Shown here one piece after another: positions 27,347 to 28,324 of a stretch of 64,000 nt of DNA; positions within the stretch are counted from its first letter, which is position 1, and every line of letters begins with the position of its first letter. The position numbers and the translations under genes were made by a program. The notes beneath the pieces are model-generated. The model had not been told where the DNA came from. It did not search any database and saw nothing but the letters and a program-made list of their open reading frames with translations. The stretch lies in NCBI RefSeq assembly GCF_988243305.1, contig NZ_OZ547136.1; one strand, given 5' to 3'.

Positions 27347-28324
27347 GTGTTCGGGGGTTTTATGAGCAGCAAGCTTCATGGTCTTGTCTGGGAAGGGTGC
27401 GCCTTCACCGGCATGATCTTATCCAGGGTGGCGGTTATGGCCCGTCTTGCAGACTACAGCAATGACGAGGGCGTGTCATGGCCTGCCATTGAAACTATCC
27501 GGCGTCAGATCGGTGCAAGAAGTGAATCCACAGTGAAATCGGCTATTGCAGAACTGGCGAAAGAGGGCTGGCTGACGAAGGAAGAGCGTAAGGTCGGTGG
27601 GCGTAATGTAAGCAATATCTATCGGCTTAATGTGGAAAAACTCGAAGCAGCTGCGGCGGCGGCGCGTGAGTCATATAAACCGAAAAGAAAAATTAGCCCG
27701 GCAAAAAATGACCCGTTAACAGTTGACCCGTCAAATATTGACCCCTCAACGGTTGACCCGTCAAATTTTGATGGATCAACTGTTGATAAAAAACTGCCGA
27801 TTAGGGGGGCGATGATTGACCCCGATCCGTCAGTATTAAAACCTGATCCGTCAGATAAAAGATCTTCTTGTCCGGACGCTTCGCAACCGGACCCGCAGAC
27901 GGCTGAACAGGATTTTTTAACCCGACACCCTGACGCGGTTGTGTTCAGTGCGAAAAAACGCCAGTGGGGAAGTCAGGAAGATTTGGTGTGCGCACAGTGG
28001 ATCTGGGGACGAATCGTGAGTCTTTACGAGCAGGCGGCCAGCTATGATGGCGAGATCACTAGACCGAAAGAACCCAACTGGACAGCATGGGCCAATGACG
28101 TTCGCACAATGCGGATGCTGGATGGCAGAACTCACAGACAAATTTGTGAAATGTTTGGGCGTCTCCAGCGGGATTCGTTCTGGGTAAAAAACATCATGAG
28201 TCCGGCAAAACTCCGGGAAAAATGGGATGAACTGGTTATCCGCCTGGGGCGTTCGCCTGCGCAGCGTTGCGTGAATCACATTTCTGAACCGGACACTGAA
28301 ATTCCGCCGGGCTTCAGGGGGTAA
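27347..28324 (+). CDS. replication initiation protein (lambda O analogue) containing the origin
   Basis: 325-aa ORF, N-terminal winged-helix region, iterons inside the coding sequence. Confidence 0.7.
   Translation: MFGGFMSSKLHGLVWEGCAFTGMILSRVAVMARLADYSNDEGVSWPAIETIRRQIGARSESTVKSAIAELAKEGWLTKEERKVGGRNVSNIYRLNVEKLEAAAAAARESYKPKRKISPAKNDPLTVDPSNIDPSTVDPSNFDGSTVDKKLPIRGAMIDPDPSVLKPDPSDKRSSCPDASQPDPQTAEQDFLTRHPDAVVFSAKKRQWGSQEDLVCAQWIWGRIVSLYEQAASYDGEITRPKEPNWTAWANDVRTMRMLDGRTHRQICEMFGRLQRDSFWVKNIMSPAKLREKWDELVIRLGRSPAQRCVNHISEPDTEIPPGFRG
27709..27860 (+). repeat. origin iterons (TTGACCCGTCAA-like, 6-7 copies) plus adjacent AT-rich stretch
   Basis: direct repeats TGACCCGTTAACAG / TTGACCCGTCAAAT / TTGACCCCTCAACGG / TTGACCCGTCAAATT / TTGATGGATCAACTG ... 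Confidence 0.65.

Follow-up and report, generated by a model that had tools for sequence, protein, structure and literature searches.

A lambda-O-type prophage initiator with a putative internal iteron origin, a DnaT-like C-terminal tail and no recognizable phage helicase loader

The 64,000-nucleotide stretch of contig NZ_OZ547136.1 analysed here (the window) contains an Escherichia coli lambdoid prophage inserted adjoining ompW. The replication initiator gene of this prophage, at 27362-28324, has no recognizable helicase loader gene beside it. Sequence comparison gives good support to its product being a lambda-O-type initiator, and equally good support to an iteron origin lying inside the gene. 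The protein ends in about 20 residues that closely resemble the end of the host protein DnaT, and among related phages it is this tail, rather than any other part of the initiator, that appears to follow the type of helicase loader encoded next to it. The reading preferred here, with a probability put slightly above even, is that the DnaT-like tail of an O-type initiator with an internal origin docks a DnaC-type loader complex, in this case that of the host. The tail-docking proposal is new and unproven. The gene itself belongs to the lambda O family, is frequent and already annotated in databases, and has the known but uncharacterised 'O-only' form.

The initiator gene and the parts of its product are:

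27362-28324, plus strand: replication initiator gene, 320 amino acids, assigned by phrog_391 and RefSeq homologues
27362-27676, plus strand: predicted N-terminal winged-helix origin-binding domain, amino acids 1-105 (HTH_36, E=2.2e-6; predicted local distance difference test score, pLDDT, >90)
27677-27892, plus strand: disordered inter-domain linker, amino acids 106-177, the DNA of which holds the repeats (pLDDT 39-70, no secondary structure)
27893-28252, plus strand: lambda-O-type helical C-terminal domain, amino acids 178-297 (pLDDT >92)
28262-28321, plus strand: DnaT-like C-terminal tail QRCVNHISEPDTEIPPGFRG, amino acids 301-320, predicted disordered (pLDDT 52-65)

The initial annotation, made from the sequence alone, had placed a lambda O-like initiator open reading frame (ORF) at 27347-28324. 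This was borne out by a full-length match to the phrog_391 profile 'replication initiation O-like' (amino acids 6-325 against profile positions 1-298 of 298, E=2.2e-115) and by 39% identity of the C-terminal domain to residues 171-277 of lambda O (E=5e-26). The mechanical ORF runs from a GTG at 27347; the ATG at 27362, where the RefSeq homologues start, is the likely true start. A tblastn search with the initiator matches the O genes of lambda, 933W, 21 and H-19B, and there are 914 homologues in the Enterobacterales. The ORF is intact, with a conservation of 99-100%. In an AlphaFold (AF2) model based on a 78-sequence alignment (mean pLDDT 82.6), residues 298-320 form a disordered tail. All Foldseek matches of the N-terminal domain are winged helix-turn-helix (wHTH) regulators of MarR/ArsR/PadR-like types, and the domain belongs to Pfam HTH_36, unlike the Phage_rep_O domain of lambda itself. 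A domain search of the C-terminal half, which the initial annotation had proposed as a check, returned an ordinary lambda-O-type core followed by the short DnaT-like tail; in Pfam, the C-terminal domain had no match, to DnaT or to any other family.

The tail is identical to residues 160-179 of E. coli DnaT at 14 of 20 positions (70%, pairwise E=1e-7), and its matches in the PDB are 2ru8, 6aep and 9zbt_D. Few parts of DnaT are as strongly conserved as this segment – ten of its residues are invariant in an alignment of 20 orthologues, and nine of the ten are kept in the phage tail, which has the invariant pattern RDxNxxS(E/Q)PDxxIPxGFRG. The initiator thus ends ..EPDTEIPPGFRG, and not with the Trp-rich acidic tail of O-P modules. 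The likeness to DnaT is confined to this segment. NCBIfam PRK02854 is matched at positions 159-179 only, and the score of 16.7-18.1 bits falls far short of the curated cutoff of 201; the initiator does not qualify as a whole-protein DnaT by either PF17948 or PRK02854. Outside the tail, hhalign gives a probability of 0.6% for a relationship with DnaT, and the three-helix C-terminal bundle by which DnaT binds single-stranded DNA (residues 84-153) has no counterpart in the initiator. The RAST-style label 'primosomal protein I' on relatives of this gene evidently stems from the tail alone. A literature search for what the DnaT tail does came back empty – in the structure papers the tail is cut off or passed over – and neither PPGFRG nor GFRG occurs in the papers searched for these motifs.

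The family of the C-terminal domain comprises 3063 representatives at E <=1e-3, and the tail type was scored against the downstream gene in viral contigs. The conserved core ..ILSPAKLREKWDxL is followed by one of several alternative short tails. Upstream of DnaC orthologues, 74 of 79 initiators have the strict tail ..RDxNxISxPDxxIPxGFRG, and the remaining five have degenerate versions of it (PPGFN, IPDGFTG). The C-terminal cores of these DnaC-linked initiators fall into at least five families that are unrelated to one another. Upstream of P-family loaders, none of the 74 scorable initiators has a GFRG tail and all 74 have a Trp-rich one, of the form ..HWNSPEAWENTL or ..LDFxNTDWxEGL; lambda, Pm34 and four further contexts agree with this pairing. 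A natural swap is found in a Serratia symbiotica prophage, whose initiator is 64% identical overall to that of the window (72% in the N-terminal domain, 69% in the C-terminal core) and has a Trp-rich tail together with a P gene. A third group consists of about 84 loci in which the initiator is GFRG-tailed and flanks of 2.5-4 kb are free of DnaC-, P- and DnaB-like sequence. It includes four distant representatives as well as phage LLS, in which the C-terminal core is of a different family, and every O-only initiator examined, that of LLS among them, has the DnaT-like tail. Across these proteins, the N-terminal domain (and with it the iterons), the core and the tail shuffle independently of one another, and of the three only the tail tracks the type of loader.

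Other tails in the collection are of interest in their own right. In loci L105-L184, the 74 scorable initiators upstream of lambda-P-family loaders (the ORF ending near position 2500) close with either HWN[ST]xE[AG]W[EG]xx[LI] or [LI]D[FWL]xNTDWx[EDG]G, whatever their core domain, and this Trp-rich acidic ending seems to be a motif for docking P. Genetic data show that lambda O cannot do without its last five residues (PMC6022878). Eleven phage initiators (L252-L262, match region ca. 1700-2500) combine a DUF1376/YdaU-type N-terminal domain with the whole C-terminal domain of DnaT, their C-terminal ca. 100 amino acids being 43-50% identical to DnaT 85-179 (E down to 1e-28). In each case an overlapping DnaC orthologue follows. 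Such a pair is the phage equivalent of the dnaT-dnaC operon in the host and ties that operon to phage modules. In two Vibrio phages (L102, 302-1066; L103, 1755-2495), a diverged tail, ..VNxIGT[DN]FxKP[DE]GW[NA], precedes DnaC-like genes with 39-40% identity, which suggests that the tail co-evolved with the adjacent loader. Vibrio phage K67 (L265, 2081-3407) has a lambda-O-type C-terminal domain with the tail ..DDSEGDPQFRF and an overlapping gene for a 143-amino-acid protein next to it, and may represent a further class of tail and partner.

The putative origin lies in the DNA that encodes the linker:

27708-27779, no strand: five iterons with the core TTGACCCGTCAA, starting at 27708, 27723, 27738, 27753 and 27768
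27783-27794, no strand: degenerate sixth iteron TTGATAAAAAAC (repeat search and direct reading)
27816-27833, no strand: split site TTGAC-N8-GTCAG (repeat search and direct reading)
27821 and 27842 (region to 27854), no strand: two CCYGATCCGTCAG half-site repeats (repeat search)
27774-27864 (91 nt), no strand: four GATC sites and short A/T-rich stretches to the right of the iterons, a candidate unwinding and methylation-sensitive zone

The five TTGACCCGTCAA-like 12-mers are spaced exactly 15 nt apart, two of them perfect and three with one or two mismatches. Elsewhere in the 64 kb, on both strands, there are only five further matches at <=2 mismatches. Origin repeats inside the rep gene, as in lambda O/ori, had been noticed in the initial annotation and are found at the place it gave. 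Its count of six or seven iterons is on the high side, since five are in register, the sixth is degenerate and the rest are one split site and two half-site repeats. The AT-rich tract that it described likewise corresponds to something modest: three 30-nt stretches (27670-99, 27760-89 and 27830-59) have an A+T content of 63-70%, against 48% for the gene, and the gene contains no long lambda-like AT block. GATC sites at a density of >=4 per 100 nt occur at only 4 places in the 64 kb.

A period of 15 nt is also five codons, and the encoded pentapeptide, V/I-D-P-S-N/T, is repeated along with the DNA, as it would be if the repeats were mere peptide linker and the real origin lay elsewhere. Comparison with relatives points the other way. 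Phages Kati, Klebsiella phage 1 LV-2017 and LLS, whose initiators have N-terminal domains 65-67% identical to that of the window, have repeats of the type TGAC(C/G)C(G/A)TCA with the same core and the same period of 15 (TCTGACCCGTCAAAA x4.3, TCTGACGCGTCAAAA x4.7 and TCTGACGCATCAAAA x4, respectively), while mEp460, with a C-terminal domain 92% identical and an unrelated N-terminal domain, has a different repeat. The repeat type thus tracks the N-terminal domain and not the linker or the C-terminal domain, as binding sites for an initiator should and a mere peptide repeat should not. The iteron core is moreover palindromic (TTGAC-CC-GTCAA), a property of the DNA for which there is no coding reason, flanking A-tracts and the GATC cluster are present, and iterons in linker-coding DNA are the layout of lambda O and ori-lambda (PMC7466680). 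A linker without origin function is the least probable of the alternatives considered here, and a very remote one.

The prophage codes for two DNA methyltransferases (28785-29273 and 36001-37050), and in several related solo-O phages a gene for Dam or another methyltransferase lies directly 3' of the initiator. Together with the GATC cluster, the methyltransferase genes hint at a methylation-sensitive control of the origin.

Downstream of the initiator the window contains:

28325-28364, plus strand: 'solo' junction, 40 nt of spacer that separate the initiator from the DUF977 gene; related prophages have a DnaC orthologue and DUF1627 at this place
28365-28788, plus strand: DUF977/Ren-like wHTH gene, frameshifted, not a loader (Pfam DUF977, PHROG Ren-like)
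28785-29273, plus strand: S-adenosylmethionine (SAM)-dependent DNA methyltransferase (phrog_954, E=3e-86; 96% identical to the methyltransferase of locus L006)

Junction-spanning queries were run against 5426 complete E. coli genomes, with window positions 28175-28475 as the query for the solo junction. The solo junction, from the initiator directly to DUF977, is contiguous in 1770 of these genomes, and a junction from the initiator to a DnaC orthologue occurs in 1243. In locus L006, which has the latter arrangement, the initiator is identical at 319 of 320 positions and is followed 6 nt downstream by a DnaC orthologue (IstB_IS21, E=7e-19) that is 48% identical to E. coli DnaC over its full length (E=8e-88), and then by DUF1627, DUF977 and the methyltransferase. 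The E. coli host has a similar junction, with the dnaT stop 2 nt from the dnaC start; a position directly upstream of dnaC, as for dnaT, is thus not found in the window but is found for the nearly identical initiator of L006 and the 1243 genomes. Because such an initiator precedes a phage DnaC orthologue in so many genomes, that of the window is not intrinsically 'loader-free'.

This raises the question of whether the window simply shows a deletion remnant, in which a phage DnaC-like gene was lost and the prophage is replicated passively or with help in trans from the DnaC-like gene of a co-resident prophage. The paired form of the same initiator is abundant, E. coli genomes contain a median of 2 related places, and the DUF977 gene next to the initiator is frameshifted in the window. 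DNA alignment to L006 reveals an extra A in an A-run, and by tblastn the gene is spread over two frames that correspond to amino acids 1-75 and 90-138 of an intact 140-amino-acid homologue; it is probably a pseudogene. The solo junction, however, has a conserved 40-nt spacer of its own, and the arrangement is also found in the isolated phages mEp460, HannyBb, Kati, Klebsiella phage 1 LV-2017 and LLS, the last of which was grown experimentally on K-12. Since it occurs in 1770 genomes and in isolated phages, the solo form is stable and evidently functional, and not a one-off deletion. The intact and conserved initiator ORF also argues against decay, as does the retention of int, Q and the lysis and morphogenesis genes, and loss of a loader is considered an improbable explanation. 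The O-only arrangement is neither rare nor unnoticed. In a survey of enterobacterial lambdoid phages (Zheng, Casjens et al. 2025, PMC12315714), 34 of 314 have an O homologue alone, with a replication described as 'not yet understood'; a term search of the paper finds no occurrence of 'DnaT', and its passage on this type does not mention a DnaT-like tail.

Pfam and PHROGs identified no loader or helicase among the products of all sizeable early-region ORFs. When the 64 kb were searched in six frames by tblastn, the queries being DnaC from E. coli, three DnaC-likes of phages, three members of the P family and one DnaB-like helicase, there was no match below E=0.1, and the RefSeq annotation of a 97%-identical prophage has no loader between int and the terminase gene. 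With DUF977 and not a P-family gene next to the initiator, the module is not of the lambda O-P kind, and the prophage falls under the 'O-only' definition of PMC12315714. This agrees with the initial annotation, which had seen no adjacent helicase loader and described the next genes as small ORFs and a methyltransferase (here, the frameshifted DUF977/Ren-like gene and the SAM-dependent enzyme). It had also stated that a loader homologue downstream or elsewhere in the prophage would refute its view; none was found across the 64-kb window.

One of the small genes that come next (for a DUF977/Ren-like, a DUF1627 or another wHTH protein) might still encode a loader without homology to known ones, as small wHTH proteins – DUF977, DUF1627, phrog_1324 and phrog_1687 – often follow solo initiators. 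There is, however, no second gene common to all solo phages: the next gene encodes a methyltransferase in LLS and Klebsiella phage 1, a wHTH 'activator' in Kati and DUF977 in mEp460. DUF977 and DUF1627 are also found after the DnaC orthologue in L006, like ren after P in lambda, and the DUF977 gene of the window is the frameshifted one. Pfam, PHROGs and six-frame tblastn revealed no hidden loader in the window or in the solo loci. An unrecognised loader is accordingly rated as very improbable. DUF1627 itself (phrog_630, with a weak wHTH/Ren-like N-terminal region) lies directly 3' of GFRG-tailed initiators or of their DnaC-like gene in L089, L090, L091 and L006; it recurs with and without a DnaC orthologue and is absent from the window.

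In the preferred reading, a single initiator gene with its own origin would be the complete replication module of the prophage. It is well supported that the winged-helix N-terminal domain binds the five palindromic iterons, with the A/T-rich, GATC-dense flank as the likely melting zone; the steps that follow are inferred. Lambda O would present its Trp-rich C-terminal tail to the P-type loader of the phage. The window initiator would present in its place a disordered motif of ca. 20 residues, ..VNxISEPDxxIPPGFRG, a copy of the host DnaT tail that would serve as a docking motif for DnaB6-DnaC6. In the sister prophages, the tail would couple to the phage DnaC orthologue encoded 6 nt downstream; in the solo version, it would capture host DnaB-DnaC directly, and therefore no phage loader or P analogue would be needed. 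The co-occurrence of tail and partner points to recruitment of host DnaB/DnaC by the initiator. The initial annotation had guessed that the C-terminal half might do this, which is plausible in view of the comparative evidence, and the candidate region is now narrowed to the last ca. 20 residues. What is added to that earlier view is a specific determinant, the DnaT-type tail, and a general rule relating tail to loader. As a corollary, the tail of DnaT may be the contact, long sought, by which the restart preprimosome recruits DnaB-DnaC.

The generalized form of this proposal is more tentative, with a probability put a little below even. It holds that the final 15-20 residues of lambda-family initiators form a modular 'loader code', in which a Trp-rich acidic tail would specify a P-type and ..IPxGFRG a DnaC-type loader, that phages without a loader would capture host DnaB6-DnaC6, and that the tail of DnaT, not its N-terminal domain, would recruit DnaB-DnaC in restart.

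Several points weigh against tail docking. A 2026 paper on preprimosome structure (PMC13377028) speculates that DnaT's N-terminal domain, not its tail, recruits DnaB/DnaC, and no direct contact of DnaC with PriA, PriB or DnaT has been shown (PMC11087952). The co-occurrence of tail and loader fits binding to DnaC, binding to DnaB within the complex, or binding to another factor of the DnaC pathway such as PriA equally well, and the loci are phylogenetically non-independent, though they span several core families. The 'DnaT C-ter motif' of DopC, known here by description only, is paired with the P-like DopE (Brezellec et al., PMC5509034). In the window itself, the AT-rich element is weak, and with its frameshifted DUF977 gene this copy may be decaying.

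Docking of the tail to host PriA (or PriB) instead of DnaC is the main rival. The initiator would then nucleate the replication-restart preprimosome where the origin has melted, and host DnaT would bring in DnaB-DnaC. In a cryo-electron microscopy structure of the preprimosome, the C-terminal domain of DnaT docks PriA by a conserved hydrophobic interface (2026, PMC13377028); the tail is hydrophobic and invariant, and since loading at the end of a PriA route is DnaC-dependent too, that route would produce the same correlation with DnaC versus P. In its text, however, that paper does not place the interface in the tail, and tight operon coupling links the tail to DnaC orthologues in phages and host alike. 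In the Vibrio phages, the tail has diverged along with DnaC-likes of 40% identity, which argues for the product of the adjacent gene as its partner. Docking to PriA is therefore regarded as unlikely, and capture of a DnaC-type complex by the tail is retained as the preferred reading.

Upstream of the initiator, the prophage includes:

20155-21285, minus strand: integrase
25936-26709, minus strand: CI-like repressor (Pfam)
26702-26917, plus strand: P22-Cro-like gene (Pfam; also RefSeq annotation of the 97%-identical prophage)
26914-27339, plus strand: YdaT-family gene in the cII position (Pfam; also RefSeq annotation of the 97%-identical prophage)

Because of the immunity and regulatory genes upstream (25936-27339), the initiator is placed in the pR-type (rightward) early operon. 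A promoter and terminator scan around the initiator gene gave no signal exceeding shuffled expectation. The morphogenesis genes extend as far as the window end. The early left operon contains a gene for an 824-amino-acid protein (21576-24050, minus strand), annotated as 'exonuclease' in relatives, with a C-terminal Rv2179c-like 3'-5' exoribonuclease domain as its sole Pfam domain (E=2e-66) and a long acidic N-terminal region without a domain match. Two tRNA genes, Met-CAT and Arg-TCT (37100-37172 and 37276-37352), lie between the second DNA methyltransferase gene upstream and the lysis region downstream. Many prophages of the Shiga toxin (Stx) and lambdoid types have tRNA genes at such a place.

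Though the locus is ordinary, it is a useful handle on two questions that one short peptide makes testable – how O-only phages load their helicase, and how the preprimosome hands over to DnaB-DnaC. The first concerns ca. 11% of sequenced lambdoid phages and, by the solo junction, about one in three complete E. coli genomes. The second, the handover from PriA-PriB-DnaT to DnaB-DnaC, is called unknown in papers of 2024 and 2026, and the phage data amount to a natural domain-swap experiment that would single out the DnaT tail. The result lends support to a phage origin of the dnaT-dnaC operon, or to its exchange with phages. Tail type may also provide a sequence rule for predicting the host-factor dependence of prophage replication, including that of Stx-type phages, in which the level of replication affects toxin output.

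Among known systems, lambda O/ori-lambda/P is similar in its two-domain initiator with a flexible linker and a homologous C-terminal domain, in the iterons and A/T-rich flank inside the linker-coding DNA of the gene, and in the place of that gene, which follows cro and a cII-position gene and precedes a ren-like one. The window differs from lambda in its HTH_36 N-terminal domain, in iterons that are 12-bp palindromes every 15 nt, in the lack of a P gene, and in its tail – the Trp-rich ..NTDWIYGVDL of lambda is replaced by the DnaT-like IPPGFRG. E. coli DnaT shares 70% identity over its last 20 residues, and the initiator gene of the sister prophages abuts a DnaC orthologue as dnaT abuts dnaC. 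Unlike DnaT, the window initiator lacks an N-terminal domain of the DnaT kind, an acidic linker and the three-helix bundle that binds single-stranded DNA, it would act at a sequence-specific (putative) origin whereas DnaT acts at abandoned forks, and there is no adjacent dnaC in the window.

The O-only phage LLS has an O homologue alone, with an N-terminal domain 65% identical to that of the window, TGACxCxTCA iterons at a 15-nt period and an O protein ending ..IPEGFRG, though its C-terminal core is of another family and a methyltransferase gene comes next. Shigella phage 75/02 Stx ('Eru4'), SPN3UB and the Rac-like 683R6 share the tail (19 residues at 100% identity in 75/02 Stx) as well as downstream genes of the DUF1627/DUF977 type, but they have a DnaC orthologue of their own, and their N-terminal domains and C-terminal cores are unrelated to those of the window initiator. 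The DopC/DopE pair of Cellvibrionales and Oceanospirillales (2017, PMC5509034) is similar in that DopC, by description, combines an HTH_36 N-terminal domain with a 'DnaT C-ter motif'; it differs in being chromosomal and domesticated, without iterons, and in having the P-like DopE as its partner.

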